Positions 2,555 through 33,727 of a DNA stretch of 64,000 bases are shown here, piece by piece. Positions within the stretch are counted from its first letter, which is position 1. Every line of letters begins with the position of its first letter. Location of the stretch: the NCBI GenBank assembly GCA_964497795.1, contig CAZCEZ010000007.1:3655-67654 (forward strand), given 5' to 3'. The notes beneath the pieces are model-generated. The model did not search any database, was not told where the DNA came from, and saw only the letters and a program-made list of their open reading frames with translations. The position numbers and the translations under genes are program-made. This DNA comes from an uncultured Acidimicrobiaceae bacterium (lineage in GTDB: Bacteria > Actinomycetota > Acidimicrobiia > Acidimicrobiales > Salinilacustritrichaceae).

Positions 2555-2562
2555 GTCGGGCG

Positions 2563-15076: not shown

Positions 15077-15190
15077 CGGTGCCTCCCTGGGCAACGTCGG
15101 GGTGGGGTGGGGACAGGGTCGCGCAGCGCCGCCGGGCGTGCCGGGCGGGCCGTGACGGCGCGCGGGCCGTCGACGACGTAGCGTGCGGAC

Positions 15191-15571: not shown

Positions 15572-15575
15572 ACCG

Positions 15576-16010
15576 TCACGACTGGAGCACCTCGGTCACG
15601 CTGAGCTGGCCGGGCCGGTAGCTGCCCGCGACCGTCACCTCGTCCCGCGACCAGGCCGGGGCGTCGTCGGGGACGGCGAGGTCGAGCCGGCTCGGGTCCA
15701 GACCGACCAGGTCGATCGCCACGCCCTCGCAGTAGGGCGGGTCCTCCCGGTCCCGGGCCGAGCACAGGATCGAGCGCCGCTCACCGACGAAGACGTAGCC
15801 GGTCACGACGACCTGCTCCTCGGGCGCGACCAGCTCGAGCACCTCCTGCACCGACAGCGCGTCCTCCGCGACGTCGGCCACGTCGGGCCCCGCGTCGCCG
15901 TCGAAGAAGACGACGAGGATCAGCGCGACGACGGCGAAGCCGAGCGCGGCGGAGACCACCGACTGGACCAGGACGCGGGTGCGCGTCGTGCGACGGCGGC
16001 CCGGGCTCAC
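15576..16010 (-). CDS. Hypothetical membrane-anchored protein (last gene of the long operon)
   Basis: N-terminal 'RRRTTRTRVLVQSVVSAALGFAVVALILVVFF' TM anchor. The start overlaps the upstream stop (GTGA at 16007-16010). Third-position GC is high. Confidence 0.55.
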   Translation of the reverse strand: MSPGRRRTTRTRVLVQSVVSAALGFAVVALILVVFFDGDAGPDVADVAEDALSVQEVLELVAPEEQVVVTGYVFVGERRSILCSARDREDPPYCEGVAIDLVGLDPSRLDLAVPDDAPAWSRDEVTVAGSYRPGQLSVTEVLQS

Positions 16011-16555
16011 GCCCGGTCGACGGCCACGACGGTGCGGCTCGCGACGTCGATGGTCAGGACGGCCGCCGTCGGCAGGTCGGGCAGGTCGAGGTCGTCGGCC
16101 GCGGCCAGGACGATCCCGCTGTCGAGGACCAGGCGACCGTCCTCGGCCGACCGGAGCGAGCCGGTGACGTAGGCGAGGTCCGGGTCACCCGGGACGCGCA
16201 CCACCGAGGCGATGCTGCCGAGCCAGACGACCTCGCCGTCCTGGATGCCGACCTGGACGTAGTTGCCCTCGTAGCGGCCCACGGGCTGGAGGGAGCCGTC
16301 GCCGGCCGCGAAGGACTGGAGGTCCTCGTGGACGTCGTAGGTCCGGTCGTCGTCCAGGGTCAGGCTCGTGAAGTCGTCGGCGACCTCGACCAGGACGCCC
16401 TCGGCGTCGGGGACGCGGGGGGAGCCGTCGAGGGGCACGAACAGCTCCGGTGCGCCGTCGTCGTCCCCTCCGCCGCAGGCCGCCCCACCGAGGGACAGGA
16501 GCGCGGCCAGGGCGACGAGGCCGACGAGGGCCCGGATCCGGCGGTCGGCGCGCAC
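16007..16555 (-). CDS. Hypothetical lipoprotein
   Basis: GTG at 16555, 1 nt after the upstream stop. Signal/lipobox 'RIRALVGLVALAALLSLGGAAC|GGGDDDG'. Confidence 0.6.
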   Translation of the reverse strand: MRADRRIRALVGLVALAALLSLGGAACGGGDDDGAPELFVPLDGSPRVPDAEGVLVEVADDFTSLTLDDDRTYDVHEDLQSFAAGDGSLQPVGRYEGNYVQVGIQDGEVVWLGSIASVVRVPGDPDLAYVTGSLRSAEDGRLVLDSGIVLAAADDLDLPDLPTAAVLTIDVASRTVVAVDRA

Positions 16556-16556
16556 G

Positions 16557-17747
16557 TCAGCTGTCCGTCCCGGCGGCCGGGGCACCGGTGGTGGTCGCGT
16601 CGGTCGACCCGTCGGCCGGGTCGCCCTCGTCGCCGGCCGCACCGTCGACGACGGGCTTCACGCCGAGGTTGACGAGCACGGCGAGGTCGGCCTCGATCGT
16701 GTCGTCCTCGGGGAGCTCGACGGCGAGGGACGGATCGCCGACGTCGAGCAGCTCGTAGGACGTGGAGCGGAACCGGATGCGGGGATCGCCCCGCAGGTCG
16801 AGGAACGTGTTCAGGCCCTCGAGCAGGAACTGGCCGAGCTCCTCGCCCTCGAGCTGGCCGACGGTGGCCTGGAAGCCGTCGCGGATCTGGTCCGGCGCGT
16901 TCTCCGAGACGAGGCGGACCATGTAGTCCTCGAAGTCGTCGAGCCGGGACGGGGTGAGGCCGATGTCCTCCATGACGCGGATGACCTGGCCGTCCTTGAC
17001 GTAGACGACCATCTTCCGGAAGACGGCCTCGCCGGGCAGGTCGCCGTTCTGGGCCTCGGCCGCGGTCGGGAAGTTCGGCTGGACCAGGTCGTAGCGGGTG
17101 ACGCCCGATCCCTCCTCGGGGAGGGGGAAGGGGTCCTCGTCGGCGCGGTACACCAGGCTGATCGAGTCCGGGTCGTACTCCACGAAGACGACCTCTGTCG
17201 CCAGCGTCGCCCGGCGGGCCCGTCCGAGCTGGCGGAAGGCGTCGAAGATCGGGTCCACGCCGGGGTCGGTGGCGGCGTCGACCGACACGAGCTGGGGCGG
17301 CGCGCCGCCGGGGTCGACGACCCACCGGCGGGCCTGCAGGGCGTCGAACACGGAGATGCCGTCGAGCTCGGTCTCGGTGTCGACGAGGCCCGTCATGTCC
17401 TTGTCCACGAACCGGCCGAGCTCGCCCGGCTGGAGGAAGCGGACGGCGACGACGTCGTCGGACACGACGCGCTCCAGGACCGGCTCGCCGTCCTCGAGGA
17501 GGCGGGCCTGGTAGCGGAAGTCGTCCTCGACGATCCCCTGGACGACGGTGGTCCGACCGGAGGGCGTGACCTCCTGGTACACGAAGCGGTGCGCCTGCAG
17601 GGCCGTCTCGTCGAGGACGTCGCGCACCTCCTCGGAGTCGGTGTCGTCCTGCGCGCAGGCGCCGGCCAGCACGCCGAGCAGACCGACGAGCACGGCGATG
17701 CGGGCCCAGCGTCGACGGGGGTGGGACCGGGGCGTTCGGCCGATCAC
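16557..17747 (-). CDS. Hypothetical lipoprotein (396 aa)
   Basis: GTG at 17747 overlaps the upstream stop (GTGA). 'RRRWARIAVLVGLLGVLAGAC|AQDD'. No family recognised. Confidence 0.65.
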   Translation of the reverse strand: MIGRTPRSHPRRRWARIAVLVGLLGVLAGACAQDDTDSEEVRDVLDETALQAHRFVYQEVTPSGRTTVVQGIVEDDFRYQARLLEDGEPVLERVVSDDVVAVRFLQPGELGRFVDKDMTGLVDTETELDGISVFDALQARRWVVDPGGAPPQLVSVDAATDPGVDPIFDAFRQLGRARRATLATEVVFVEYDPDSISLVYRADEDPFPLPEEGSGVTRYDLVQPNFPTAAEAQNGDLPGEAVFRKMVVYVKDGQVIRVMEDIGLTPSRLDDFEDYMVRLVSENAPDQIRDGFQATVGQLEGEELGQFLLEGLNTFLDLRGDPRIRFRSTSYELLDVGDPSLAVELPEDDTIEADLAVLVNLGVKPVVDGAAGDEGDPADGSTDATTTGAPAAGTDS

Positions 17748-18268
17748 GGCTGGATCTCCAGTGCCTCGCGGAGCAGCGATCGGCCGCCCTCGTAGCCGTC
17801 GCGGGTCGACAGCAGGAACAGGTGGTCGTCGTCGAACCAGATCGTCAGCGTCTGGCGGTCGGCACCGGCCACGTAGAGCTCGGTGCCGCCCATCCGGAAC
17901 TGCGCCGCGCCCGCGCTGACGCGGTTCACCAGGCTGGCGCGGAAGGTCTCGTCGTCGGCGTCGACGTCGTCGGCGAAGCGGCCGATCTGCAGCGTGGCCT
18001 GCAGCAGGTCGTCCTCCCGGAACGAGTAGAGGCCGGCGGCCTCGAGGTACGGCCGCTGGGCGCCCGACAGCGTGTCGGCGATGTCCTCCTCCTCGACGGC
18101 CAGGCCGTTCACCTCGAGGGGGATCGACGCGTCGAGCTCGGCGATCGTCCGGTCGTCGGCGGCCGACACGGCACCGTCGTCGCCTCCGCTGCACGCACCG
18201 ACGAGCGCGGCCGCGGCCACGACCGGCGCGAGGGCCCGCCGCAGGGGGGTCCGGGACGTCACCGTCAC
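17744..18268 (-). CDS. Hypothetical lipoprotein (174 aa)
   Basis: 'LRRALAPVVAAAALVGAC|SGGDDG'. GTGA overlap with the cupredoxin-like gene stop. Confidence 0.65.
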   Translation of the reverse strand: MTVTSRTPLRRALAPVVAAAALVGACSGGDDGAVSAADDRTIAELDASIPLEVNGLAVEEEDIADTLSGAQRPYLEAAGLYSFREDDLLQATLQIGRFADDVDADDETFRASLVNRVSAGAAQFRMGGTELYVAGADRQTLTIWFDDDHLFLLSTRDGYEGGRSLLREALEIQP

Positions 18269-18789
18269 TGGACCACGATGACCTTGCCGCCCGCGTAGGG
18301 CCGCGTGTCATCGGTGTAGTTGAAGTCGCCCACGAACTCGGGCCGGAAGATCTCGACGGCGCCGGGCGCGATGGGGCCGACGCTGACGCCGAGGTTCTCG
18401 AACACGACGGTCCGGGCCTGGGTGCCGATGTTCTTGAAGCGGATGGTGCCGCCGGTGCGGATCTGGACCACGTTCGGGGTGAACTGGCCGAGGCCGTCCT
18501 GGCCGTCGTCGCGGATGACGACCTCCTCGGACACCTCCTGCTCCTCGGGCGCGACCGTCGTGGTGGTCTGGGCGACCGTGGTGGTGGTCTGCGCGGCGTC
18601 GGCGACCGTGGTCGTGGTCTGCTCGGGGATCGTGTCGTCGACCACGGTCGTGGTCGTCGTCGACCCGCCGAGGGCCTCGGACTGCTCGGGGTCGAACTCG
18701 AAGAGGGCGTCGTCGCCGACGGAGTTCTCCTCCCCGCATGCGGCGAGGACCATGCCGGCGGCGAGGAGGAGGGCGAGGAGGCGGGTCAT
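18265..18789 (-). CDS. Cupredoxin-like lipoprotein lacking copper ligands
   Basis: ATG at 18789 (ATGA overlap with the ABC gene stop). 'MTRLLALLLAAGMVLAAC|GEEN', a Thr-rich linker, then 'FTPNVVQIRTGGTIRFKNIGTQARTVVFENLG...IAPGAVEIFRPEFVGDFNYTDDTRPYAGGKVIVVQ', a plastocyanin/EfeO-N-like beta-sandwich pattern. Confidence 0.6.
   Translation of the reverse strand: MTRLLALLLAAGMVLAACGEENSVGDDALFEFDPEQSEALGGSTTTTTVVDDTIPEQTTTTVADAAQTTTTVAQTTTTVAPEEQEVSEEVVIRDDGQDGLGQFTPNVVQIRTGGTIRFKNIGTQARTVVFENLGVSVGPIAPGAVEIFRPEFVGDFNYTDDTRPYAGGKVIVVQ
18551..18621 (-). repeat. Three copies of GCGACCGTNGTGGTGGTCTG (encode 'QTTTTVA' x3)
   Basis: Copies at 18551-18570, 18572-18591 and 18602-18621. Confidence 0.75.
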
Positions 18790-21700
18790 GCGAGGCTCCC
18801 GGATCGGTTGATGGCGGCCTCGGAGGTGCCGAGGTAGGACTCGATGACGCGCTCGTCGTTCAGCACGTCGTCGGGCAGGCCGCGGGTGACGAACGTGCCC
18901 TGCTCGAGGGCGATGAGCTCGTCGGAGACAGCGGAGATGAGCGGCATGTCGTGCTCGATGATGAGGATCGAGCAACCGGTCTCGAACTTGACCCGGCGCA
19001 GCAGCGGGGCGAGGCCCTCGGCCTCGGCCTGGGCGATGCCCGAGGACGGCTCGTCGAGGAGCAGCACCTTGGGCTCGGCGGCGAGCACGCAGGCCAGGTC
19101 GACGATCCGGCGCAGGCCGGTGGACAGCTCGCGGACGAACTTGTCGCGGAAGGCACCGATCTCGAGGAGCTCGATGAGGCGCTCGGCGCGGACCCGGGCC
19201 CGGCGCTCGGCCTTGCGGACCTGCGGCGCGGAGATGGCGCCGAGGATCGAGGAGCGGACCTCGAGCTTCTGCTCGAGGGCGATCAGGATCGTCTCCTCGA
19301 CGGTCAGCGAGGGGAAGAGGCGGGCGTCCTGGAAGCGGCGGATGAGGCCCATGCGAGCCCGCTCCTGGGGCGAGAGGTCGTTGAGCTCGACGCCCTGGAA
19401 GCGCACGACGCCGCCGTCGAGGGGCTGGGCCCCCGAGATCAGGTCGAAGATGGTCGTCTTGCCGGCGCCGTTGGGACCGATGAGGCCGAGGACCTCGCCC
19501 TCGCGCAGGGCGAAGGAGACGTCGTTGACGGCCCGGACGCCGCCGTAGTCCTTGACGAGCCCCTCGACCTCGAGCGCCGGGGCGGCGTCGGCGAGCTCGA
19601 TCGGCCCACCGGCGGCGGCCGTGGTGCCGGAGGTGAGGGCGCCGGTGCCCTTGACGTACACGGCGCGGAGGATGTCGGGGCGGTCGAGCAGGTCCTGGGT
19701 GGGCCCGTAGAACCGGACCTCGCCCTTCTCCATGAAGATCGCCTTGTCGGCGATGGTCAGGGCGACGTTCACCGACTGCTCGACGACGATGACGGTGACG
19801 CCTCGCCGGTTGATCTCCTTGACGATCTCGACCAGCTGGCCGACCACGGCGGGCGACAGGCCGAGGGAGAGCTCGTCGATCAGGAGCATCTTCGGCTTGC
19901 ACAGGAAGGCCTGGGCCAGCGACAGCTGCTGCTGCTCGCCGCCCGAGAGCGTGCCGGCCGGGACGTCGAGGCGCTCGGTCAGGCGGGGGAAGATCTCGAA
20001 GACCTCGCGCATCCGGGCCTTGGCGTCCTCGACGTCGTCGGACATCCAGTTGCCGAGCAGCAGGTTCTCCCGCACCGACATGGACGGGAAGATGCCCCGG
20101 CCACCGGGCATCTCGATGACGCCGCGGGCAGCGATCTCGTTGGACGGCATCTGGGTGATGTCGCGCCCGTCGAAGATGACCGCACCGGAGCGGGCCGGCT
20201 GCACGCCGCACATGGCCCGCAGCACCGTGGACTTGCCGGCGCCGTTGGTGCCGAGGAGGGCGAGGATCTCGCCCTCCTCCACGTCGAAGTCGACGTCGAA
20301 GAGGACCTGGACGTTGTCGTAGTAGACGTCGAGGTTGCGGGCCACGAGCAGCTTGGTCTCGCCGGACAGCTTCGCCCGCTGGTACTCCTGGCTGGCGACC
20401 GACTTGGCGAAGGCGGCCCGCATGTCGAGCTCGAAGAACGGGGCGGCGGACAGGTCGATGGCGGCACCGACGAGGCTGAGCAGGAACGCCATGATCCAGA
20501 TGGCGTCGTAGCCGTAGTCGCCGTTGAGCTGGCGGGCGATCGGCAGCCACAGGACCGGACCGACGAGCCGGGACAGGTCGGTCAGCTGCAGACCGAAGGT
20601 CCGGATGTTGGCCGGGATGACCTGGACGTTCACGACCGCGGCCGACGGCCCGATCATGGAGGCGCCGAAGGAGATCACGGCGAGGGCGCCGACGATGACC
20701 CACAGCGGCGGGGTCAGGATGTACAGCAGCGGCCAGGGTGCGGCGACGAGGCCGAAGACCGCCACGATGTAGATCACCCGGGACGGGTTGACCCGCGTGA
20801 GCCGGTCCACGAGCGTCCCGCCGTAGAGGCCGCCCGCGATCCCGGTGAGGGCGGCCGGGATGGTGAGCAGGCCGAGCTCGAAGGCGTTGAGCCCGTACTC
20901 CTCGGCGGCGAAGAAGATGAAGAAGAGGCCCGACACCGAGCTCGCGCCGCTGGCGAAGATGTCGGCGATGGTGCGGCGCCGGATGGTGCGGACGGCGAAC
21001 GTGGTCCGGAACGACTCGGCGAAGGACAGGGGCTCGTCCTCGACGGCGGCCTGCTCGTCGGTGGCGCCGAGGGCCTTGCGCTCGAAGAAGCCGCGGATCG
21101 GCTCGCGGAGCGTGAAGATCGAGATCACGCCCATGACGAGCAGCGGCACGCCGATGATCTTGAACGCCGTCTGCCAGCCGAGCTCGACGATGAGGTAGCC
21201 GGTGAAGAGCGGCGCCGCGATCTGCCCGATGCGCCCGAGGGCGCCGTTGAAGGCGAAGGCCTTCCCCCGCACGTCGTAGGGGTAGTAGTCGGCGAACAGG
21301 CTCAGGCGGGGCACGCCGGATCCGTCGTCGGCGGCGGCGTTCGCGACCCGGCTCGTGCTCAGGGGCGAGAAGGAGTTGGACAGGCCGGCGAAGAACGTGG
21401 CCACGCCCGAGAGCATCGTCCCCACCCAGATGAAGGGGGTGCGGCGGACCCGGTCGGCGTAGTAGCCGGCCAGGATCGAGGCGAAGACCGACACGGTGCC
21501 CACGAGGGCGACGATGCCGATGATGTCGCCGACGTCGATGTTGAGGTCGCGGGCGATGTCCGGGCCGGCGAGGGTGAACGCCGCCGAGTCGAGCTGCTGG
21601 AAGAAGGAGATGCCCGACAGCGTCAGCAGCGGGGCGAGGCCGTAGGGCGACTTCCGCAGGCGGGAGAAGTCGAAGGAGTCCTTCGCCGCCTGCCTCCAGC

Positions 21701-22067
21701 TGCGCCGGCGGGTCTCGCCGGCCTCGTTCTCGGCCTCGCCCGGGGCGAACAGCCCGCCGGTGTCGAAGTCGGGCTCGTCGAGGAGGTGGATGCGGCCGGC
21801 GGCCTCGTCGGAGGCGGGCGACTCGAGGAAGTCGTCGGCCTGGGGCTCGCGCCGCCGGTCGTGCGGGAGCGTGGTCGGCGCCGTGTGAGCGGCCCGGGAC
21901 TCGACGCCGGCGTTGCCGACCTCGTGGGTCGTGGCCGGCCGACCGGGGCGGGCCTGCTCGTGCGGGGTCGAGCGCTCGGCGCCGGCCGGGGCGGGCGCGG
22001 TGCCGGCACTGCGCAGGGGCGCTCGGCGGGCTCGACGGCGGGGGCCGGTGGGGTCGTCGATGCTCAT
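18786..22067 (-). CDS. Tri-domain protein: 12-TM MFS domain + LivF-like ATPase + LivG-like ATPase (1093 aa)
   Basis: MFS motif A 'LAGYYADRVRRTPFIWVG' and about 12 hydrophobic helices (aa ~140-560). ATPase 1: 'LLGTNGAGKST', 'LSGGEQQQL', 'LLIDELSLGL' (LivF-like). ATPase 2: 'LIGPNGAGKTT', 'LSTGLRRIVDLA', 'LLLDEPSSGI' (LivG-like). AGGAG sits 7 nt before the ATG at 22067. Confidence 0.85.
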   Translation of the reverse strand: MSIDDPTGPRRRARRAPLRSAGTAPAPAGAERSTPHEQARPGRPATTHEVGNAGVESRAAHTAPTTLPHDRRREPQADDFLESPASDEAAGRIHLLDEPDFDTGGLFAPGEAENEAGETRRRSWRQAAKDSFDFSRLRKSPYGLAPLLTLSGISFFQQLDSAAFTLAGPDIARDLNIDVGDIIGIVALVGTVSVFASILAGYYADRVRRTPFIWVGTMLSGVATFFAGLSNSFSPLSTSRVANAAADDGSGVPRLSLFADYYPYDVRGKAFAFNGALGRIGQIAAPLFTGYLIVELGWQTAFKIIGVPLLVMGVISIFTLREPIRGFFERKALGATDEQAAVEDEPLSFAESFRTTFAVRTIRRRTIADIFASGASSVSGLFFIFFAAEEYGLNAFELGLLTIPAALTGIAGGLYGGTLVDRLTRVNPSRVIYIVAVFGLVAAPWPLLYILTPPLWVIVGALAVISFGASMIGPSAAVVNVQVIPANIRTFGLQLTDLSRLVGPVLWLPIARQLNGDYGYDAIWIMAFLLSLVGAAIDLSAAPFFELDMRAAFAKSVASQEYQRAKLSGETKLLVARNLDVYYDNVQVLFDVDFDVEEGEILALLGTNGAGKSTVLRAMCGVQPARSGAVIFDGRDITQMPSNEIAARGVIEMPGGRGIFPSMSVRENLLLGNWMSDDVEDAKARMREVFEIFPRLTERLDVPAGTLSGGEQQQLSLAQAFLCKPKMLLIDELSLGLSPAVVGQLVEIVKEINRRGVTVIVVEQSVNVALTIADKAIFMEKGEVRFYGPTQDLLDRPDILRAVYVKGTGALTSGTTAAAGGPIELADAAPALEVEGLVKDYGGVRAVNDVSFALREGEVLGLIGPNGAGKTTIFDLISGAQPLDGGVVRFQGVELNDLSPQERARMGLIRRFQDARLFPSLTVEETILIALEQKLEVRSSILGAISAPQVRKAERRARVRAERLIELLEIGAFRDKFVRELSTGLRRIVDLACVLAAEPKVLLLDEPSSGIAQAEAEGLAPLLRRVKFETGCSILIIEHDMPLISAVSDELIALEQGTFVTRGLPDDVLNDERVIESYLGTSEAAINRSGSLA

Positions 22068-22076
22068 CTCGGGCTC

Positions 22077-24386
22077 CTAGGCGCCCACCGGGCTGGAGCC
22101 CAGCAGGGGGTTCTTCTCGGGTTCGGGCGCGGGGCGCTCCACCTCGGAGCGGGCCGCCTGGGCGAACCGCTCGGCGGCCGACTGCCCCCGACCCCGGTAC
22201 AGCTCGGAGCGCAGCGACCAGCGCTGGTCGCTCGGCAGGGCGGCGAGGCCGGAGTCGCCCGACAGCTCGTCGAGGGGCACCTCGCGACGCTCGATGGCGT
22301 CTGCGTCGTAGTCCGCGAACAGGCTCGGCACCACGATCTGCTCCCGCTGGGCGACGACCCGCAGCGCGGAGTTCCGCACGCCCTGGACCAGCGAGATGAA
22401 GCCGCCGGGGAAGGCCAGGATGATGAAGATCGTGCCGCCGTTGTTCAGGAACGTGCGGAAGATGCCGGCGGTGAGGAAGTACTGGAGCGACTCGAAGTAG
22501 GCGGCGCCGAGCAGGGCGCCGGCCACGGCCCCGACGCCGCCGATGATGGCGGTGTTGAACGCCTCGAAGCTGGGGAGCACGCCGTACTGGGCCGCCGTGA
22601 TGCCCTGCTGCTGGTGGACGAACACGGCACCGGCGAAGCCGGCGATCGCCCCGGAGATCCCGAAGGCCAGCAGCTTGGTCCGGAACACGTCCACGCCGAA
22701 GGCCTGCACGTTCGTCTCGTTCTCCCGCAGGGCGATCAGGATGCGACCGGCCCGGGTGCGCCGCAGGTTCCCGACGACGACGATGGTCGCGACCAGGGCG
22801 GCCACGCACAGGAAGTACATCGAGGTGTCGTCGGCGAAGTCGAGGAAGAACAGCGTCGGCCGCTCGATGGCCGCATCGGGCTGGAGCCACCCGAAGTACC
22901 GGTCGTCGAAGAAGACGTTCTCGATGGTGAAGGCGAAGGCGAGGGTGACCGGGAGCAGGAACAGCCCCTTGATCCGCAGCGCCGGGATGCCCACCGCGAT
23001 GGCGACGGCGCCGGCGATCGCGGTCGCCACGGGGACGGCGAGCCAGAACGTGAGGCCGGCGGTGGTGGTGAGCGCGGCGGCGACGACGGCGCCGACGGCG
23101 GCGAAGCCCCACTGCCCGACCGACACCTGGCCGCCCCAGCCGGTCAGGACGACCAGCGAGATGACCACGATCGTCGACAGGGCGATGGTCGAGGCGAGCG
23201 ACACGAACCCGGACGAGGCGACGAAGGGGATGATGCCCAGCGCCAGGAGCCCGACGGCGTACAGGCCGAGGCGCACGTTGCGCACCACGGGCAGCGAGGC
23301 CAGCGCCTCGGGGACCGGCCGGGGCTCGTCGGCGGCGGCCCAGGACACCTGCGCCTGCTCGACCCGGTCGAGGCCCTTGGACTGCGAGATCAGGCCGACG
23401 GCGAGGACGACGAGGTAGAACACCGCGATCAGCGGGGTGTCCTCGGGGTAGGCGAAGCGGAACGAGCGGACGAGGATCGACAGGAGGAGCGTGGCGACCA
23501 CGGCCGTGGGCAGCTTCTCCATGCGGGCGAGGACCGCGGCGGCGAGCGAGATCAGCAGCACGGCCGGCGACAGGTTGTTGGCTGCGGCCGGCGTCTGCGT
23601 CATGGCCGTGCCGACGGTGGTGAGGCCGCCCAGCACCGCCGAGACCACGAACACGCCGATGACCAGGCCGGGCACGCCGATCCCGAGCAGACCGGCCCGC
23701 TCGGGGTTCTCGGCCAGGGCCCGGACGGCCGTGCCGACCTTCGTGTAGCGCAGGGTCGCGCCGATGGCGACCAGGACGAGGAGGGTGACCTCGAGCACGA
23801 ACAGCTCGGCGAAGCCGAAGGGCACCGGGTAGTCCCCGATGAAGAACTCGAAGCCGGCGAGGGGCAGGTAGCCCCCCTCGGTCAGGGCGACGCCGCCGAG
23901 CTGCTCCTGCTGGGGCAGCTGGGCGATGTCGGAGAAGAAGGGCAGCTGGGCGATGTTCGGGGCGAACTGCACCAGGAACAGCGCGGTGACCGCGGTGACC
24001 ACGGTCAGCACGAGGCGGGAGGCCTTGAGGAACCGGATCGACACGACGCCGGCGGCGAGGCCGACGGCGGCCGAGACGGCGACGCTGATCAGGACGGCGA
24101 GCAGGAACGGGACGTCGGTCAGGCGCACGAACAGGAAGAAGGCCGTGGAGCCGAACACGCCGAAGGCCGTCTGCGCGAAGTTGATGACCCGGATCGACCG
24201 GTACACCAGCACGATGCCCACCGTCGTGAGGCTGGCGAGCGCACCGCTGACGAGGCCGTCGAAGACGATGCCGGCGGGCACGCCGCCGTCCATGACCAGC
24301 AGGCTCAGCACCAGCGTCAGGACGGTGGCGCCGCCGAGGAGGACGGCCGACCTCAGCCGGGGATCGGAGGGCAGGAACCTGGTCAC
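22077..24386 (-). CDS. Fused LivH-LivM type branched-chain/HAAT ABC permease (769 aa)
   Basis: GTG at 24386 (GTGA overlap). The N-terminal half is LivH-like ('GIVLVYRSIRVINFAQTAFGVFG', 'RYTKVGTAVRALAENPERAGLLGI'). The C-terminal half is LivM-like ('LTGWGGQVSVGQWGFAAVGA', 'RAGRILIALRENETNVQAFGV'). Confidence 0.85.
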   Translation of the reverse strand: MTRFLPSDPRLRSAVLLGGATVLTLVLSLLVMDGGVPAGIVFDGLVSGALASLTTVGIVLVYRSIRVINFAQTAFGVFGSTAFFLFVRLTDVPFLLAVLISVAVSAAVGLAAGVVSIRFLKASRLVLTVVTAVTALFLVQFAPNIAQLPFFSDIAQLPQQEQLGGVALTEGGYLPLAGFEFFIGDYPVPFGFAELFVLEVTLLVLVAIGATLRYTKVGTAVRALAENPERAGLLGIGVPGLVIGVFVVSAVLGGLTTVGTAMTQTPAAANNLSPAVLLISLAAAVLARMEKLPTAVVATLLLSILVRSFRFAYPEDTPLIAVFYLVVLAVGLISQSKGLDRVEQAQVSWAAADEPRPVPEALASLPVVRNVRLGLYAVGLLALGIIPFVASSGFVSLASTIALSTIVVISLVVLTGWGGQVSVGQWGFAAVGAVVAAALTTTAGLTFWLAVPVATAIAGAVAIAVGIPALRIKGLFLLPVTLAFAFTIENVFFDDRYFGWLQPDAAIERPTLFFLDFADDTSMYFLCVAALVATIVVVGNLRRTRAGRILIALRENETNVQAFGVDVFRTKLLAFGISGAIAGFAGAVFVHQQQGITAAQYGVLPSFEAFNTAIIGGVGAVAGALLGAAYFESLQYFLTAGIFRTFLNNGGTIFIILAFPGGFISLVQGVRNSALRVVAQREQIVVPSLFADYDADAIERREVPLDELSGDSGLAALPSDQRWSLRSELYRGRGQSAAERFAQAARSEVERPAPEPEKNPLLGSSPVGA
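23913..23956 (-). repeat. 17-nt direct repeat with 27-nt period inside the LivH half
   Basis: GGGCAGCTGGGCGATGT at 23913-23929 and 23940-23956, encoding 'IAQLPFFSD/IAQLPQQEQ'. Confidence 0.7.
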
Positions 24387-25609
24387 CGGAGGTCCTCGGG
24401 CAGCGGGTCGGCCTCGACCTGACCCCGTTCGTAGGTGGCGTCCACCGAGTTGCCCAGCGCATCGGTCACCAGCGACGTCTCGCCGATGACGAGGGCGCCG
24501 AGCTCGGTGCTCACGACGTACTCGGCCTCGATGGTGACCGTGCCGGCCGCCGTGGCCCGGGTCTCGGAGACCTCGACGAGCCACCCGTCGAGCAGTGTCC
24601 CGCACGCGTCGACGGATCGACGCTCGTTGACCTGGCCCTCGATGCGGCGGGTCTCGCCGGAGGTCGGGTCGACGGCCGTGGAGGTCCAGAACTCGCCGGC
24701 CTGGACGGGCAGCGGCAGGTACAGCAGCGGCGACGACGGGTTGAACGAGCCCTGGTTGGCTCCGTTGGCGTCGATGTTCTCGACCTGGTTCAGGACCAGG
24801 CCGCGGTTCGGCTCGCCGGTCTGGATCCGCTGGCCGCCGGGGAGCTGCTCCTGGGCCTCGTCGGGGACGTCGACGTCCTCGCCGGTGATCTCCGACGCCG
24901 CGCCCTCGGCCGTCATGGTGACGCCCTCGGGGTCCTGGGTGACGTTGGCGCCGGCGGCGACGGGCGCCGTGTTGACCGTCCAGGTGGTCAGCTCGGTCAG
25001 GCCGGACGGCAGCGGCGCGAGGGTCTCGTAGCGGTAGCGCATGCCCTGCTGCGCACTCGGGTCGTCGGTGTCGACGGCGGTCCCGGCACCGAGCTCCTCG
25101 ACGGCGCGCACGGCGCGGGTCTCGAAGCCCTCGACCTGCACCGTGATCTCGCCGGCGGCGCCGACGGAGGTGGTGGTGATGTCCCGCTTCCACCGGTAGA
25201 CGCCGACCTCGGGGACCGTGGTCACCTCCTCGGGGGCCTGGGTGGCCGGGCTCGAGCCGATGGGCGCCGTCGGGCACTCGACCTCGGGCGCCGGCGGCTG
25301 GAGGTTGGTGAACCGGTTGAACCGGTCCGGGAGCGTGTTGCGGAACGGCACCGTGAGCGCACCGGTGCCGGTGTCCACGGGCCGCCCCTGCTGGGCGGCC
25401 TGGGCCGGCACGGCCGTGGGCAGCTCGATCGGGGCGTCCTCGGCCGGGGCCTCGAAGCCGAACGCCACGTCGGCCTGCAGGGCCTGGATGTCCACGCCGG
25501 GCTCGTCGGGCTCGACGCAGGCGGTGGTCACGAGGGCCAGGCCCAGGGCGCCGACGGCGAGCCGGCGGGTGCTGGGGCGGTGCTCAGGTCGGGGTCGGGA
25601 CACGTTCAC
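24383..25609 (-). CDS. Hypothetical lipoprotein (408 aa)
   Basis: 'RRLAVGALGLALVTTAC|VEPDEPG'. No family recognised. The start overlaps the 3' end of the transglutaminase-like gene. Confidence 0.65.
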   Translation of the reverse strand: MNVSRPRPEHRPSTRRLAVGALGLALVTTACVEPDEPGVDIQALQADVAFGFEAPAEDAPIELPTAVPAQAAQQGRPVDTGTGALTVPFRNTLPDRFNRFTNLQPPAPEVECPTAPIGSSPATQAPEEVTTVPEVGVYRWKRDITTTSVGAAGEITVQVEGFETRAVRAVEELGAGTAVDTDDPSAQQGMRYRYETLAPLPSGLTELTTWTVNTAPVAAGANVTQDPEGVTMTAEGAASEITGEDVDVPDEAQEQLPGGQRIQTGEPNRGLVLNQVENIDANGANQGSFNPSSPLLYLPLPVQAGEFWTSTAVDPTSGETRRIEGQVNERRSVDACGTLLDGWLVEVSETRATAAGTVTIEAEYVVSTELGALVIGETSLVTDALGNSVDATYERGQVEADPLPEDLR

Positions 25610-28025
25610 GCTCCTCCTCGACGAGGACGGTGGGGGGGATCTCCTCGGGGCGGCCTCGATCGCCCGCCTCGGCGGTCGTCGCCGGGCGGCGGCGCAGGCG
25701 GCGACGACCGCCCGCGGGCCCGTCGCCGTCGCCGTCGTCGGGCGGCGAGGCCGGGCCGGCGCCGGGGTCGCGCCGGGTCAGGTCGGTCGCGGGGGCGAAG
25801 GGCTCCCGCAGCGAGATGCGCGACACGGCGGCGACGAAGCGCATCGACCCGGGCTGGGCCGAGGAGAGCCGACGGCGCAGGGCACGGGACAGCTCCTCGG
25901 CTGCGGCGGCCTGCCGGTCGTCGGCGTCGTCTCGCAGGTCGCCCCACAGGGTGCGGGTGACGAGCCAGGCGAGCTCGGTGTGCTCGGGGTCCTCGATGAA
26001 CCGGGACAGGAACATCAGCGGCGTGTCGTTCGGGAACCGGAAGCCGAAGTCGGCGGCGTGGTCGCGCCACTCGGCGTAGGCCAGGGCGATCCGGGCCCTG
26101 GGGCCGTCCGCCCGGGCGGCGGCCCGGCGGGCCGAGCGGAGGCGGGCCTTGCGGATGGCCGGGATCGCCAGGTAGGCGGCGAAGGCGAGGAGGGCCAGCA
26201 CGACGGCGACCAGGACGCCGATCTGGATCTGCTGGGTCAGCGTCGACGGCGGCGCGAGGAGGGTCGGCAGGTAGATCTGCACGGCCGTGTCGTCGGACGG
26301 GACGATGTTGGGATCGACCTGCTGCTGGCCGGGGTCGGTGCCCACGGTCGGCTTGGCCTGCGCCGGCGTGCCGATCACGGGCAACCAGCCGAAGCCGGGG
26401 AAGTTGACCTCGACGAAGGAGGCGCCGTGCTTGGGGCGGACCTCGAGGACCTCGCCGTTCAGGTCGCCGCCGTCGAAGCCGAAGCCGATCCGGGACGGGA
26501 TGCCCAGCCAGCGGCCGACCATGGCCTGCATGGCGACGATCTCGTACGGGGACGCCTCGAAGGTGCCGCCGAGGATCTCCTGGACCCGGGCCGGCGGGAT
26601 GGCCACCGGCTCGCCCGCGCCGGCGGCCACGACCTCGTCCAGGATGTAGGTCCGGATGAAGTCGAACCGGTCCCACTGGTTGTCGAAGCTGGTGATCGCC
26701 TCGGTGAGCAGGGCCTGCACGGCGGGCGGCGGATCGGGGATCTCGGTCAGCTCGAGCAGCTCGGGCTCGTAGTCGATGCTGGCCCCGAGCCCGCGCAGGT
26801 CGTCGACCGAGGGCAGGGCGGCGGCGGCGATGCGGTACACCTGGCCGGAGCGGATCGTGCCCGAGGCGACGCGGACGTTGTTCGTGTTGGCGTCGTAGGC
26901 GAGGTCCACGCCCGAGGACTGGATGACGGCGGACAGCGGCAGGCCGGGCAGGACGGTGCCGCCGAGGCCGAAGATCCGGAAGCGGGCCCGCACGCCGAGG
27001 CGGCCGACGAGCTCGTCGTCGATGATGCCGTTGTTGGGGATGTCCTCGAACTCGTTGGTGACGAGGGCCGGGAGCAGCCAGGCCTCGCCGTCGTAGACCG
27101 ACAGCGAGCCCATGCGCCACGGACCGGAGACCGTGAGCTCGGCGTCGCCGGACTCGACGTCGGGGCCGACCTCGAACAGGACGCGGTCCTCGACCTCCGA
27201 CAGCGGGACGGTGTCGGGCTGCTGGGGCTCCTCGGCCGGGTCGATCTGGGGATCCGGGAAGAGGAAGTCGGTCTGGGCCAGGCCGATCAGCATGCCGGTG
27301 ATCACGGCGATCACGGGGAGGCTCTTGGCCAGTTTGCGCAGCTCGTAGGAGAGGGGCGGGCGCTCGGAGCCCTCGAAGGAGTTGATCGAGGAGAGCACGC
27401 CGAGCCCGAGGGCGAAGAGGACCAGCACGACGACGCCGGACGCGACCTGCTGGTCGTCGGGGACCGAGATGCCGGCGATGGCGGCGAAGGGCAGGGGCAC
27501 GAGCAGCGCCAGCGAGCGCTTCTTCACCACGACGCCGAGCCACACGGTGGTGAAGCCCACGATGCCCATGAGCCACGAGGTGATGGCCCGCCAGCCGGCG
27601 GAGAAGGGCAGGGGCGGCCGGGTCAGGTCGCCCTCGGCCGCAGCCTCGGATGCGAGGTCGCCGGCGTTGGCGATGTTGCCGGGCCCGATCAGCAGGAGGC
27701 CGATGGCGAACAGCCCGACGACGGTGAGGACGTTGGAGAGCAGGGGGTTCCGGGTGCGGGACACCACCAGGCCGAGGCCCATCCCCAGCACGCCGGCGAT
27801 CGCGGCGTAGATGCGGGGGTCGACGCCGGTGAACACGCCGCCGGCCATGACGGCGGTGCCGAGGACGGGGAAGACGAGGGCGAATGCCGTGCGGTAGGGC
27901 GAGAGCTCCTCGGGCTCGCCCTCCTCGTCGTCGTCGACGCCGGCGTCGACGTCGGACTCGGTCGCGGCGAGGTCGGCGTCCTCGAGGGCGTCCTCGGCCG
28001 TCGTCTGCTCGTCGGTGACGGTCAT
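25584..28025 (-). CDS. Transglutaminase-like / DUF4129 polytopic membrane protein, cysteine-free (813 aa)
   Basis: ATG at 28025 (ATGA overlap with the DUF58 stop). N-terminal multi-TM region. TGase-core-like 'EIVAMQAMVGRWLGIPSRIGFGFDGG ... ASFVEVNFPGFGWLPVIGTP'. A late TM, then DUF4129-like 'RIALAYAEWRDHAADFGFRFPNDTPLMFLSRF'. Confidence 0.75.
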   Translation of the reverse strand: MTVTDEQTTAEDALEDADLAATESDVDAGVDDDEEGEPEELSPYRTAFALVFPVLGTAVMAGGVFTGVDPRIYAAIAGVLGMGLGLVVSRTRNPLLSNVLTVVGLFAIGLLLIGPGNIANAGDLASEAAAEGDLTRPPLPFSAGWRAITSWLMGIVGFTTVWLGVVVKKRSLALLVPLPFAAIAGISVPDDQQVASGVVVLVLFALGLGVLSSINSFEGSERPPLSYELRKLAKSLPVIAVITGMLIGLAQTDFLFPDPQIDPAEEPQQPDTVPLSEVEDRVLFEVGPDVESGDAELTVSGPWRMGSLSVYDGEAWLLPALVTNEFEDIPNNGIIDDELVGRLGVRARFRIFGLGGTVLPGLPLSAVIQSSGVDLAYDANTNNVRVASGTIRSGQVYRIAAAALPSVDDLRGLGASIDYEPELLELTEIPDPPPAVQALLTEAITSFDNQWDRFDFIRTYILDEVVAAGAGEPVAIPPARVQEILGGTFEASPYEIVAMQAMVGRWLGIPSRIGFGFDGGDLNGEVLEVRPKHGASFVEVNFPGFGWLPVIGTPAQAKPTVGTDPGQQQVDPNIVPSDDTAVQIYLPTLLAPPSTLTQQIQIGVLVAVVLALLAFAAYLAIPAIRKARLRSARRAAARADGPRARIALAYAEWRDHAADFGFRFPNDTPLMFLSRFIEDPEHTELAWLVTRTLWGDLRDDADDRQAAAAEELSRALRRRLSSAQPGSMRFVAAVSRISLREPFAPATDLTRRDPGAGPASPPDDGDGDGPAGGRRRLRRRPATTAEAGDRGRPEEIPPTVLVEEERERVPTPT

Positions 28026-29356
28026 CGTGCGGCTCCCGTGACCTCGTTGAACAGCGCGGTGGCCAGGTCCTGACCCGGGCGCACGCCCGTGACCTGGCAG
28101 CCGAGGGACGCGGCGACGCCCATCGTCGAGGAGTCCTCCTCGTCCCAGAGCAGGGCGATGACCTGGACCGAGACGCCCGTCTGGAGCAGCAGCTTGAGCT
28201 GGGTCGCGGACTGCGGGCCCAGGTGCGGGGTGACGAGGATGTTGTGGGCGTCCCGCTGCGCACCGGCCAGCATCCGCTGGAGGCAGGCGGTGAGGGGCTG
28301 GCGGTCGAGCTCGACGGTGGCGAAGGCGTCGAGCATCGACGTCTGGGCCGTCGCGCCCCGCAGGTGCCGCGTCAGGGGACCGGCGTTGGTCTCGACCTTG
28401 ATCTCGTAGCCCTCGCGGAGGTGGCGCACCGCGAGGCTGGCCGCGGCGCGCACGCCGGTCTCGAAGGACTCCGACAGGCCCTCGCCGTCGTTGGAGTGGT
28501 GGCCCCGGTCGGTGTCCAGGATGATCGTGATGTGGTCCGTGATGCCCTGCTCGGCCTCGCGGATCATGACCTTGCCGGTCTTGGCGGTGGCCTTCCACAC
28601 GATCTTGCGGGTGTCGTCGCCCCGCACGTACTCGCGCATGCCGTAGAACTCCATGCCCGACGGCCAGGGTCGGGACACGGGCGGACGGATGGGCGGGTCC
28701 TCGTTCGAGCGGGACAGCGGGCGGTCGGACACGAGCTCGATGCGGGGGTGCACGAGCAGCTCGAAGGGCTCGGACACGACCGTCTCGCGCTCGGAGAGCC
28801 CGAGGGGGTCCGACGCGACCGCGACGAGCGGCCCGATCTCGTAGACGCCGCGGCGGGCGGCGCGCAGGGTGTAGCGGTGCGAGACCGTCTTGCCCTTGCC
28901 GAGCCGGGTCACGGGCACCTTCACCGAGGTGCCGAGGCGCTCGGGCACGCGCTCCTCGAGGAGGAAGGTCGACACGGTCCGCCCGGCGGTGAGCGCGACC
29001 TCGACGTCGAGGCGGTCGCCCTCGACGGCGCGGGGGAACAGGCCGGTCCGGTCGCCGGTCAGCTTGAGGCGGCGGGGGGCGATGGCGATCGAGATGCCGA
29101 GGAGCAGCACGATGCCGTACGCGAACAGGTACATGGCCGTGCCCGCGACGATGTAGGCCAGCAGCCACATGAGCACCGCGGCCACCACGGCGGCCACGCC
29201 GACGCGGGTGACGCCGATCTTGCGCTCGAGCGCCGCGTAGGAGCGGCGCAGGTTCGCGGGCTCGAGCGCGGCACGGACCCGGTCGAGCCGGGCGAGCACG
29301 CGACGGCCCGCGGAGGGCTTGGGCTGGGCCGCATCGGCGCGGCCGACCGCGACCAT
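28022..29356 (-). CDS. DUF58 domain protein (vWA-like, MoxR partner)
   Basis: Two N-terminal TMs. 'GMREYVRGDDTRKIVWKATAKTGKVMIREAEQG...ITIILDTD'. Confidence 0.85.
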   Translation of the reverse strand: MVAVGRADAAQPKPSAGRRVLARLDRVRAALEPANLRRSYAALERKIGVTRVGVAAVVAAVLMWLLAYIVAGTAMYLFAYGIVLLLGISIAIAPRRLKLTGDRTGLFPRAVEGDRLDVEVALTAGRTVSTFLLEERVPERLGTSVKVPVTRLGKGKTVSHRYTLRAARRGVYEIGPLVAVASDPLGLSERETVVSEPFELLVHPRIELVSDRPLSRSNEDPPIRPPVSRPWPSGMEFYGMREYVRGDDTRKIVWKATAKTGKVMIREAEQGITDHITIILDTDRGHHSNDGEGLSESFETGVRAAASLAVRHLREGYEIKVETNAGPLTRHLRGATAQTSMLDAFATVELDRQPLTACLQRMLAGAQRDAHNILVTPHLGPQSATQLKLLLQTGVSVQVIALLWDEEDSSTMGVAASLGCQVTGVRPGQDLATALFNEVTGAAR

Positions 29357-30384
29357 CAGGAGACGGCGGAGAGGTCGGATCGACCGCTGACGGGCGGCTT
29401 GACGCTCGACGTGATCCGCTCGAGGGCGGCGTCGACGTTCTCCCCGCGCAGGATGGCGTCGGGGTTGAGGATGATCCGGTGCCCGAGCACGGGGCGCAGC
29501 ACGGCGCGGACGTCGTCGGGGTAGACGTGGCTGCGGCCGTCGGAGGCGGCCAGCGTGCGGGACGCCTTGAGGAGGGCGATCGTGGCGCGGGGCGAGCCGC
29601 CGGCCGCGATGGCGGCGTCGTTGCGGGTGGCCTGGACCAGGTCGACGATGTAGTAGCCGACCTCGGGGGACACCTCGACGGTGGATGCGTACTCGATCAT
29701 CTCGCGCACGTTGTCCAGGTCGGTGACGGGGCGCAGGTCCTCGATCGACAGCGACTTGGCGTTGTCGAACATGACCTCGAACTCGGAGTCGCGGTTCATG
29801 TAGCCCATCGACAGCTTGAACAGGAAGCGGTCCAGCTGGGCCTCGGGGAGGGGGAAGGTGCCGGCCTGCTCGACCGGGTTCTGCGTGGCGAGCACGAGGA
29901 AGGGGCGGGGCAGGTCGTACGTCGTGCCGTCCGCGGTCACGCGGCGCTCGGCCATGGCCTCGAGCAGGGCGGACTGCGTCTTGGGGGTGGCGCGGTTCAC
30001 CTCGTCGGCCAGGAGCACGTTGGTGAAGACCGGGCCGGGCTGGAACTCGAAGGTGCCCTCGTTCTGGCGGTAGATCGAGGAGCCGGTGATGTCACCGGGG
30101 AGCATGTCCGGCGTGCACTGGATGCGGGCGTTGCCGGCGCTGATCGTCTCGGAGATCGCCCGGGAGAGCATCGACTTGCCCGTGCCGGGGAGGTCCTCGA
30201 ACAGGATGTGGCCCTCGGCGATGATGGCGCAGATCGCGAGGCGGACGACGTCGGACTTGCCCTTGATGACCGACTCGATGTTGCCGGTGATCGCGTCGAA
30301 GTCCTCCTTGAACCGCTCGGCGGTCATCCCGTCGGAGGAGGATCGGCTCGCCTTGAGCGGCGTGCGGGCAGGGCGAGTGGCCAT
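29356..30384 (-). CDS. MoxR-family AAA+ ATPase (AAA_3 type)
   Basis: 'HILFEDLPGTGKSMLSRAIS', 'RIQCTPDMLPGDITGSSIY', 'VLLADEVNRATPKTQSALLEAMAERRVT', 'LVLATQNPVEQAGTFPLPEAQLDRF'. Start taken as the ATG at 30384; the ORF track extends to 30456. Confidence 0.9.
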   Translation of the reverse strand: MATRPARTPLKASRSSSDGMTAERFKEDFDAITGNIESVIKGKSDVVRLAICAIIAEGHILFEDLPGTGKSMLSRAISETISAGNARIQCTPDMLPGDITGSSIYRQNEGTFEFQPGPVFTNVLLADEVNRATPKTQSALLEAMAERRVTADGTTYDLPRPFLVLATQNPVEQAGTFPLPEAQLDRFLFKLSMGYMNRDSEFEVMFDNAKSLSIEDLRPVTDLDNVREMIEYASTVEVSPEVGYYIVDLVQATRNDAAIAAGGSPRATIALLKASRTLAASDGRSHVYPDDVRAVLRPVLGHRIILNPDAILRGENVDAALERITSSVKPPVSGRSDLSAVS

Positions 30385-30839
30385 GGTTCGGGACCCCTTG
30401 GAAGTCGTGTCGATGCTCGGACGCCGCCGTCGGTCGGCGCCCGCCCCGGCGGACACGGTAGGAGCGTCCAGCCGTCGGGGCGATGTCGAAGGGGTTCTGC
30501 ACGGCCCGCGGGATCTCCTCCCCAGGTGCCCGAGGAAACGCGCCGTTCACGAGGCAGGTCGCGAACGCTCGGGAGGAACGGTGCGCGATGTGACAGGGGC
30601 GACACCCCGGAACCACGCGGTTCGTCAGGAACGCCGGCCCCGTAATGCTCCGTTCACAGGCCTGACGTGGGCCCGGTGCCAGGCGTTGCCTACCGTCTGT
30701 CCCGTTCGCGCAGATCGGCTGGTCTCGGCGTGCGCTCCGGTGCAGGAGACGGGCCGCCTGCGGGCGAATATGGACAGCAGGGACGGTCGAGGGAACCAGA
30801 TCGCCCCCACCAGGAACGACACGGGAGGCTCGCGCCGAC

Positions 30840-33694: not shown

Positions 33695-33727
33695 CGCTGC
33701 GGGCCCGTCCCGCACCGACGCGACCGT

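Follow-up and report, generated by a model that had tools for sequence, protein, structure and literature searches.

The window analysed here, a 64,000-nucleotide stretch of contig CAZCEZ010000007.1 (assembly GCA_964497795.1) from an uncultured Acidimicrobiaceae bacterium, contains a run of eleven minus-strand genes at positions 15576–30384 in which a MoxR AAA+ ATPase, a DUF58 protein and a TgpA-like membrane protein are followed by a lipoprotein, a Liv-type ABC transporter carried on two polypeptides and a further set of lipoproteins. The cluster is a new architecture assembled from known kinds of module. Comparison of the cluster across genomes supports, at the level of sequence, a functional link between the MoxR module and the transporter, and we consider it an evenly balanced judgement that the locus forms one conserved envelope system of 12–13 genes, arranged in two divergent transcription units. 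The genes of both units and the region between them are listed below, the minus-strand genes being numbered g1 to g11 in the direction of transcription.

29356–30384, minus strand: g1, MoxR-proper AAA+ ATPase of 342 aa (AAA_3 E=7e-60, AAA_lid_2 E=1e-21)
28022–29356, minus strand: g2, DUF58 protein bearing a membrane hairpin of two helices at the N-terminus (PF01882 E=4e-9)
25584–28025, minus strand: g3, polytopic TgpA-like membrane protein whose extracytoplasmic domain is of pseudo-transglutaminase type (weak Transglut_core match, E=1e-3)
24383–25609, minus strand: g4, 408-aa lipoprotein of an orphan family (lipoprotein signal peptide, lipobox Cys)
22077–24386, minus strand: g5, fused LivH-LivM permease (LivHM) of 769 aa (two BPD_transp_2 domains, PF02653 E=8.5e-54 in two stretches)
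18786–22067, minus strand: g6 (MFS-ABC), 1093 aa, disordered N-terminus followed by MFS, LivF-like and LivG-like domains (MFS_1 E=2.5e-37, two ABC_tran matches)
18265–18789, minus strand: g7, lipoprotein containing a cupredoxin-like domain and a linker rich in Thr (Cupredoxin_1 PF13473 E=5e-7, above the curated cutoff)
17744–18268, minus strand: g8, 174-aa lipoprotein of an orphan family (no Pfam or PDB match)
16557–17747, minus strand: g9, 396-aa lipoprotein with a predicted LolA/LolB/RseB-like fold and a helical insert (AlphaFold2 (AF2) model, pLDDT 88.7)
16007–16555, minus strand: g10, 182-aa orphan-family lipoprotein (Pfam and PDB searches without significant match)
15576–16010, minus strand: g11, 144-aa protein with a transmembrane (TM) anchor (third-position GC 0.97)
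30385–30839, between the units: divergent intergenic region of 455 bp separating g1 from the binding-protein gene
30840–32738, plus strand: 632-aa binding protein with an N-terminal TM anchor (predicted LivK/LIVBP-type fold by AF2/Foldseek)
32738–33694, plus strand: secreted protein of 318 aa with signal peptide, linker rich in Thr and Pro, and TM anchor at the C-terminus (third-position GC 0.97)

The conservation of the cluster was examined by scanning an MFS-domain alignment over one genome per GTDB species, which revealed 112 relatives; 80 loci were taken, plus 9 others, and are referred to below by L numbers. The first loci served to build one hidden Markov model per gene family, and presence was counted only in loci with enough flanking sequence. 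An earlier protein search had given just 18 full-length MFS-ABC proteins, a low count that was an artefact of saturation by ABC domains. The host genomes were all metagenome-assembled genomes (MAGs), mostly from Acidimicrobiia/Acidimicrobiales with four from Dormibacterota; some of the MAG labels, on contigs called Burkholderiales and Mycobacteriales, may reflect mis-binning. Within the group of loci termed here the full clade, in which MFS identity to the window protein extended from 73% down to ~33%, LivHM was present in 62/62 loci, g4 in 58/58 and the TgpA-like gene in 54/54, and g4 accompanied the TgpA-like gene in 58/58 loci. DUF58 was detected in 48/52 and MoxR in 41/50, and the lipoproteins g7, g8, g9 and g10 were found in 59/63, 58/60, 56/58 and 40/52, respectively. 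The last gene, g11, occurred in 5 loci only and is a lineage-specific tail gene rather than a core member. The initial annotation of this DNA had proposed that the MoxR module is tied to the transporter. Homologues of the transporter do lie beside MoxR/DUF58/transglutaminase-like genes in dozens of species-level genomes, down to the lowest MFS identities of the clade, and the tie is complete for the TgpA-like protein and g4 (100%) and looser for MoxR and DUF58, which were absent in cis from 9/50 and 4/52 loci.

The linkage was kept where the order of the genes was rearranged. The Dormibacterota locus L087 has the order LivHM, MFS-ABC, MoxR, DUF58, TgpA, g4, and in a second Dormibacterota locus, L059, the order is g8, g9, binding protein, MoxR, g7. 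One subclade (L051/58/63/67) lacked MoxR in cis, its members being mutual nearest neighbours for every protein tested, and four loci (L003, L018, L029 and L044) lacked both MoxR and DUF58. Two of these four, L018 and L029, are second copies, the other copy in the same genome being complete. In the two-copy genomes (L022/L029, L018/L069 and L030/L051) each copy has its own TgpA-like and g4 genes. In L003, at 2320–4487, YdjC-like and neutral/alkaline ceramidase-like genes were observed upstream of the TgpA-like gene; the arrangement was seen once and gives a possible hint of a lipid or glycan link.

A minimal paralogous clade was also recovered, whose loci encode just the binding protein, LivHM and MFS-ABC and are devoid of MoxR, DUF58, TgpA-like and lipoprotein genes. 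This clade has 28–31% MFS identity and comprises at least 9 loci (L072, L073, L074, L075, L078, L079, L080, L084 and L089), three of which were available with 10 kb on both sides. The 4.1-Mb chromosome OY970363 holds both types of locus, a full one (L052) and a minimal one (L078). The existence of the minimal clade indicates that the core is a self-sufficient transporter to which the remaining genes are an add-on, and provides a useful natural control for functional study.

Co-divergence was expressed as the Pearson correlation of pairwise protein identities with MFS-domain identities. The highest values for accessory proteins were those of the TgpA-like protein and g9 (both r=0.80), followed by MoxR (r=0.77), g4 (r=0.76), g8 (r=0.75), g7 (r=0.68) and DUF58 (r=0.66). 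The transporter's own parts gave r=0.79 for the second ABC domain (ABC2) and r=0.84 for LivHM, so that the accessory proteins track the MFS domain about as well as the parts of the transporter do. In the two-copy genome DATLBX the nearest neighbour of L022 was L017 for MFS, LivHM, TgpA and g9, indicating that this copy diverged as a unit.

The gene calls underlying this comparison were checked directly, the GC content of the window being 72–78%. Third-position GC was 0.93–0.99 in the annotated frame for all 11 minus-strand coding sequences, indicating that all are real genes. The junctions between them are tight: TGATG at 29354–29358 joins g1 to g2, ATGA at 28022–28025 joins g2 to g3, and g3 and g4 overlap by 26 nt (25584–25609). 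The module then meets the transporter at GTGA (24383–24386, g4/LivHM), LivHM and MFS-ABC are separated by a gap of 9 nt with TAGGAG, and the remaining junctions are ATGA at 18786–18789 (g6/g7), GTGA at 18265–18268 (g7/g8) and 17744–17747 (g8/g9), TGAcGTG at 16553–16559 (g9/g10) and GTGA at 16007–16010 (g10/g11). The first gene starts with an ATG at 30384 preceded by AAGGGG, and this start is kept in the close relative L090. Overlap of stop and start codons is in itself ordinary in high-GC operons. The same tight junctions were present in 6 orthologous loci with gene calls from independent pipelines, and the arrangement is therefore conserved and no chance feature of one strain. A sigma-70 promoter and terminator scan of 15000–31200 returned 0 promoter-like sites and 1 terminator-like site, which is at chance level, the scan being uninformative for a high-GC actinobacterium.

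These checks bore out the eleven consecutive coding sequences and the junctions that the initial annotation had described, and profile searches with Pfam/NCBIfam agreed with its MoxR, DUF58, transglutaminase-like, fused LivH-LivM, MFS-LivF-LivG and cupredoxin-like assignments. The DUF4129 label given to the transglutaminase-like protein was not borne out by Pfam at E<=0.01. The transglutaminase-like description itself stood as far as the TgpA-type architecture is concerned and failed on the catalytic triad, which is replaced in all 58 orthologues. The tight cluster proposed as an 11-gene unit is real; its limits were redrawn, as g11 is confined to a few loci and two conserved genes, for the binding protein and the 318-aa protein, lie outside 15576–30384. 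The transporter had accordingly been described with lipoproteins only, the gene for a binding protein of predicted LivK fold being located just beyond that interval, at 30840–32738.

The four genes at the head of the operon form the MoxR module. Walker A (GTGKS/T) and Walker B (DE) of MoxR were intact in 41/41 orthologues. The membrane hairpin of DUF58 is formed by predicted TM segments at residues 52–70 and 74–92, and the motif LDTDRGxHS is conserved among its orthologues. The TgpA-like protein g3 has a predicted 7+1 TM layout which places the pseudo-transglutaminase domain outside and a highly conserved C-terminal domain inside, on the cytoplasmic face. A TgpA_N domain was matched in g3 orthologues, and a profile of 9 orthologues matched the periplasmic domain of TgpA from Pseudomonas aeruginosa (PDB id. 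6g49) with E=4e-5. In this alignment the catalytic Cys, His and Asp of TgpA fall on Pro493, Ala535 and the Ile of 'PVIG' in g3. Over 58 g3 orthologues the first position was Pro in 58/58, the second was Ala in 52/58 and never His, and the third was Ile or Val and never Asp. Judged from these replacements, the transglutaminase domain of the TgpA-like protein is a catalytically dead pseudoenzyme. The TgpA-like protein is nonetheless the best-conserved accessory protein, with 62% identity between the window and L001 compared to 40% for g4. The lipoprotein g4 has a conserved pair of cysteines, Cys112/Cys336; no Pfam match was obtained with the window protein or with 58 orthologues, and its profile also gave no significant match to PDB sequences.

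The transporter core is encoded by g5 and g6. The fused permease g5 consists of a UrtB/LivH-like half (residues 40–330) and a LivM/UrtC-like half (372–665). In g6 the MFS domain (residues 152–503) has the full 12 TM segments and covers MFS_1 profile positions 3–342 of 347; it is followed by a UrtE/LivF-like domain (576–793), which scored 313 bits and lies above the curated cutoff, and by a LivG/UrtD-like domain (830–1081) plus BCA_ABC_TP_C. Motif A, defined as G-x-x-x-D-R/K-x-G-R-R/K, is conserved in both halves of the MFS domain, with D81-R82-x-x-R85 invariant and a second, conserved loop at D297, and both ABC domains retain Walker A, Walker B and the catalytic Glu. The MFS permease is apparently functional. 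The NCBIfam matches of the MFS domain were weak and mixed, and none allowed a subfamily to be assigned. All 18 close homologues carried the MFS-LivF-LivG fusion, as did the genome loci that span the gene, and it is conserved in 112 genome relatives; an assembly artefact was ruled out, since fusion and linker alike are kept in more than 100 genomes.

The gene at 30840–32738, transcribed divergently from the operon, encodes a protein with an acidic cytoplasmic tail of ~35 residues, a TM segment at 39–57, a Pro-rich linker and an ectodomain of ~480 aa that contains ten invariant cysteines. No Pfam, NCBIfam or PDB-sequence match was found for this protein, whose family has more than 900 homologues, all annotated 'hypothetical'. 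An AF2 model built with 37 homologues had a pLDDT of 78.5 overall and mostly above 90 in the ectodomain. The top Foldseek matches of the model were binding proteins of HAAT importers (4kv7 with E=1.6e-14, 4evs, 7jfn, 3td9 and 1z15), in the range E=1e-14 to 1e-12 with TM-scores of 0.6–0.72 on target length, and the receptors AmiC, CaSR and mGluR were also among the fold matches. By modelled fold and by context, and not by sequence family, this gene probably encodes the cognate membrane-anchored type I binding protein of the transporter. Among full-type loci with sufficient flank to show it, the gene was detected in 40/47, in 33 of them in directly divergent position, and minimal-clade loci have it as well. 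Some relatives have at least 4 binding-protein paralogues beside the cluster, and multiple paralogues of this kind are typical of ABC receptors. An array in L009 (6925–17602) contains four paralogues in a row (622, 623, 1082 and 611 aa) next to a single transporter cluster, an S8 peptidase gene lying among them; the 1082-aa paralogue looks like a tandem fusion. The array suggests that several ligand specificities feed one transporter.

The start of the 318-aa gene overlaps the binding-protein stop (TGATG). In at least 10 other loci tblastn located homologues adjacent to binding-protein genes, and in L090 and L091 the gene is the next one after the binding protein; it is probably the 13th member of the system. 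The L003 orthologue gave a weak match to a PPC domain. The intergenic region at 30385–30839 is presumed to be the promoter/operator region for both units. Two CCGTTCAC boxes are located in it (30543 and 30650), as is an inverted repeat (30539–30548 / 30576–30585), and (C/G)GTTCAC boxes lie at aligned positions in relatives, one in L090 (region 9598–10000) and two in L091 (5838–6262). Frequency was discarded as an argument for an operator, 3 copies of CCGTTCAC being found window-wide against 2.07 expected, which is not above chance; its position and its conservation in the two relatives make it a suggestive candidate operator. An Rfam scan of the intergenic region for a riboswitch or leader gave no match, and no such element hints at the substrate.

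The five lipoproteins g4, g7, g8, g9 and g10 have lipoprotein signal peptides with a lipobox Cys. They are not paralogues of one another, the hhalign similarity between the families being confined to the signal-peptide/lipobox region. No significant Pfam/NCBIfam match was obtained for g4 or g8–g11, and profiles of g4, g8, g9, g10 and the binding protein gave no significant match to PDB sequences. Cys, His and Met are all absent from the cupredoxin-like domain of g7 in the window, and none of them is conserved in the orthologue alignment; the domain therefore cannot form a type-1 copper site (His, Cys, His, Met). The modelled fold of g9 is a LolA-like half-barrel (an unclosed beta-barrel) with a large helical insert; LolA itself was matched by Foldseek (2w7q, E=3.6e-5, probability 1.0), and most of the top 30 matches were LolA, RseB or LolB. 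A sequence link to these families was looked for in 53 orthologues and gave no Pfam match, and there was no PDB-sequence match. The g9 family is closed, with 353 matches at E<=1e-3 (327 at E<=1e-10) among 1.84 billion representative proteins.

The composition of the locus allows a mechanism to be proposed. The LivK-fold binding protein would deliver ligand to the fused LivH-LivM channel, and the channel would be powered by the fused LivF-LivG ATPases, whose polypeptide also carries the MFS permease. In the full clade this HAAT core would be built into a larger complex with the four-gene module and lipoproteins g7–g10. MoxR, together with DUF58 as a vWA-like adaptor, would engage the TgpA-like scaffold from its cytoplasmic side and so assemble, remodel or gate the extracytoplasmic complex that the lipoproteins and the binding protein form with the transporter. 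The predicted topology, with a DUF58 hairpin and a 7+1 TM TgpA-like protein bearing an ectodomain, is consistent with a relay from the cytoplasm to the outside. The cargo would be hydrophobic or amphipathic, because g9 is LolA-like, and would be handed through the wall zone to the binding protein. We infer a physical complex, a MoxR-client relation, an import direction and the nature of the cargo. That MoxR and DUF58 assemble, remodel or gate the complex through the TgpA-like scaffold, and that the cargo is hydrophobic or amphipathic, seems to us about as probable as its opposite. A more far-reaching version, which we regard as rather unlikely, is that MoxR-DUF58-pseudoTgpA-g4 constitutes a dedicated ATP-driven transmembrane assembly/gating device for a hybrid ABC/MFS transporter and a lipoprotein scaffold, representing a new class of envelope machine in monoderm Actinomycetota/Dormibacterota that moves hydrophobic cargo between the wall zone and the membrane.

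Several points weigh against the proposed mechanism. The host genomes are all MAGs of uncultured organisms. MoxR and DUF58 are missing in cis from some loci (9/50 and 4/52, as given above) and the transporter core also occurs without the module, and MoxR is therefore not obligatory in cis. The co-divergence of the proteins partly reflects shared species phylogeny. The model leaves the role of the MFS domain unexplained, and g4, g8, g10 and part of g7 are without an assigned fold. The match of g9 to LolA is moderate (TM-score ~0.46–0.49 on target length) and silent on ligand. The MoxR-DUF58-TgpA trio occurs without any transporter in Pseudomonas (PMC3507681) and Bifidobacterium (PMC8430577).

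This last point also bears on whether the operon simply holds two independent systems, a general envelope or protein maintenance module and a nutrient importer, with their adjacency reflecting co-regulation or hitch-hiking. Such an arrangement would fit the trios without transporters in other phyla (PMC3507681, PMC8430577), the core without a trio in the minimal clade, the presence of both kinds of locus on OY970363, and the loss of MoxR and DUF58 in cis in some subclades. It fits poorly with the TgpA-like gene and g4, which accompany the full-clade transporter in 54/54 and 58/58 loci, to ~33% MFS identity and in two phyla, by a linkage that outlasts shuffling of the gene order. Two-copy genomes keep the TgpA-like gene and g4 with each copy, MoxR and DUF58 being gone from L018 and L029, and stop/start overlap spans both halves of the operon at g4/LivHM in the window and in orthologues. 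Taken with this evidence, independence of the two halves appears improbable.

The mycobacterial MFS protein Rv1410c works with the lipoprotein LprG, and by analogy traffic of lipids or lipoproteins could run outward here, the MFS domain flipping or exporting a hydrophobic envelope component to g9 while the Liv-type ABC transporter and the MoxR module energise or regulate the process. BPD_transp_2 permeases and a type I binding-protein fold are hallmarks of importers, however, and in the minimal clade, where the MFS fusion and the binding protein are retained, a LolA-like lipoprotein is absent, indicating that the MFS domain does not need g9. The LolA-superfamily fold of g9, the five lipoproteins in the operon and the complete MFS domain, both halves of which conserve motif A, argue for an outward route, as do the lipid-related neighbours (PAP2_3 and LPG_synthase_TM) that are syntenic in relatives; those neighbours belong to a generally syntenic chromosomal region, and no sequence link was found between g9 and characterised lipid carriers. 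Outward traffic is considered quite unlikely on this balance. A role in sensing is very improbable. The binding protein and the pseudo-transglutaminase ectodomain would then sense a cue, with MoxR transducing it and the transporter acting as a trigger transporter, but the loci share no conserved gene for a kinase, a phosphatase or a transcription factor, the cytoplasmic tail of the binding protein is just ~35 residues long and both ABC domains retain the Walker A, Walker B and catalytic Glu residues. The points in favour of sensing are that some receptors have a type I binding-protein fold as well, the fold matches including AmiC, CaSR and mGluR, and that the PFNA cluster ties MoxR, DUF58 and TGM to signalling proteins (PMC8430577).

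When the locus was compared with known systems, the transporter core was found to share with HAAT importers (LivKHMGF, UrtABCDE; TC 3.A.1.4) the two BPD_transp_2 domains, the LivF/LivG ATPases with BCA_ABC_TP_C and, by its modelled fold, a putative binding protein of LivK/LIVBP type. It thus has the two LivH/LivM permease domains and the LivF- and LivG-type ATPase domains of that family, but not its canonical separate subunits free of extra transport domains. LivH and LivM are fused, LivF and LivG are fused in reversed order, and a full MFS permease precedes them at the N-terminal end of the ATPase polypeptide. The binding protein also differs from those of HAAT importers in being TM-anchored, ~130 residues larger, Cys-rich, divergently encoded and invisible to Pfam/NCBIfam.

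For the module, a counterpart is provided by PA2875-PA2874-TgpA of P. aeruginosa, in which we take PA2875 to be the MoxR gene. This MoxR-DUF58-transglutaminase operon is co-transcribed in PAO1, and the Cys-His-Asp triad is conserved in its TgpA, which is active in vitro (PMC3507681). The order of the three genes is shared with the window, as is a polytopic third protein with an extracytoplasmic transglutaminase-like domain; in the cluster described here the triad is instead Pro/Ala/Ile(Val), and the module is always followed by the lipoprotein g4 and the transporter. PA2875 is dispensable in PAO1 (PMC3507681), which parallels MoxR being the gene of the module most often missing here. The bifidobacterial PFNA cluster, pkb2-fn3-aaa-atp-duf58-tgm, is proposed to act in signalling (PMC8430577). 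It likewise ties an actinobacterial MoxR, a DUF58 protein and a transglutaminase-like membrane protein to a particular partner outside the cytoplasm, but the partners are a Ser/Thr kinase and an FN3 protein, and there is no transporter, binding protein or lipoprotein set. MoxR-vWA pairs such as NorQ/NorD, CbbQ/CbbO, CoxD/E and RavA/ViaA mature membrane or enzyme complexes encoded adjacent to them. The resemblance lies in a MoxR AAA+ protein with a vWA-type adaptor encoded beside a putative client; in the window the adaptor is a DUF58 protein with D-T-D-R-G-x-H-S where the vWA MIDAS motif D-x-S-x-S is expected, and the putative client is a transporter-lipoprotein assembly, with no cofactor insertion implied. 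With LolA/LolB/RseB, and with LprG/LppX and Rv1410c, the cluster shares a LolA-like half-barrel lipoprotein, g9 as modelled, in an operon with an MFS domain. The differences are that g9 showed no sequence relation to any known family and has a large helical insert, and that the MFS domain is fused to ABC ATPases. Literature searches returned no description of an association between a MoxR module and a transporter, of an MFS-LivFG fusion or of MoxR systems in Acidimicrobiia, in keeping with the initial annotation, which knew of no description of such a unit.

The surroundings of the cluster were also inspected. A mobile island was ruled out, the flanks consisting of housekeeping genes syntenic in relatives. 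A gene for an FlK-type (fluoroacetyl-CoA-like) hot-dog thioesterase (15182–15571, plus strand) converges on the end of the operon, the two stops being 4 nt apart; a thioesterase gene of this type also adjoins the cluster in L005 (16313–16690), which may be simple synteny. Beyond the 318-aa gene, the maximal open reading frame at 33726–35744 (plus strand, 672 aa) has a PAP2_3 domain in its C-terminal third. At the same position L008 and L091 have two genes, LPG_synthase_TM and PAP2_3, and the window frame is either fused or over-called. Relatives show synteny with the window over the stretch between the binding-protein gene and DXS, both included, in which PAP2 and the guanylate cyclase lie. 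An ABC-F-type protein (two ABC domains, ABC_tran_Xtn and a CTD) and, nearby, an MMPL-family transporter are encoded at 45294–48797 and 51218–53872 (both minus strand), the maximal ABC-F frame having an N-terminal extension of ~570 aa that possibly reflects an over-called start. A single-chain acetyl-/acyl-CoA carboxylase of more than 1700 aa is encoded at 58840–63945 (minus strand), running towards the end of the window; its domains are biotin carboxylase, BCCP, ACC_central and carboxyltransferase, in a eukaryote-like order that is unusual for bacteria.

MoxR-DUF58-transglutaminase-like trios are widespread, and we know of no client or mechanism for them; tgpA is essential in P. aeruginosa. 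The cluster provides the first concrete, evolutionarily fixed candidate partner for the MoxR trio. The dead transglutaminase domain argues that the conserved job of the module is structural or mechanical and not enzymatic. For HAAT importers, the locus adds a new architecture in which LivH and LivM are fused, an MFS permease is mounted on the LivFG motor and ligand would be bound by a cryptic membrane-anchored protein family of more than 900 members. Acidimicrobiia are an abundant, poorly cultured lineage of soil and aquatic habitats, and folds or roles could be assigned to several orphan families common among them. Were the MoxR module truly an ATP-driven device for this transporter, the MoxR-DUF58-TgpA trio would have its first identified client in the transporter and its lipoproteins.

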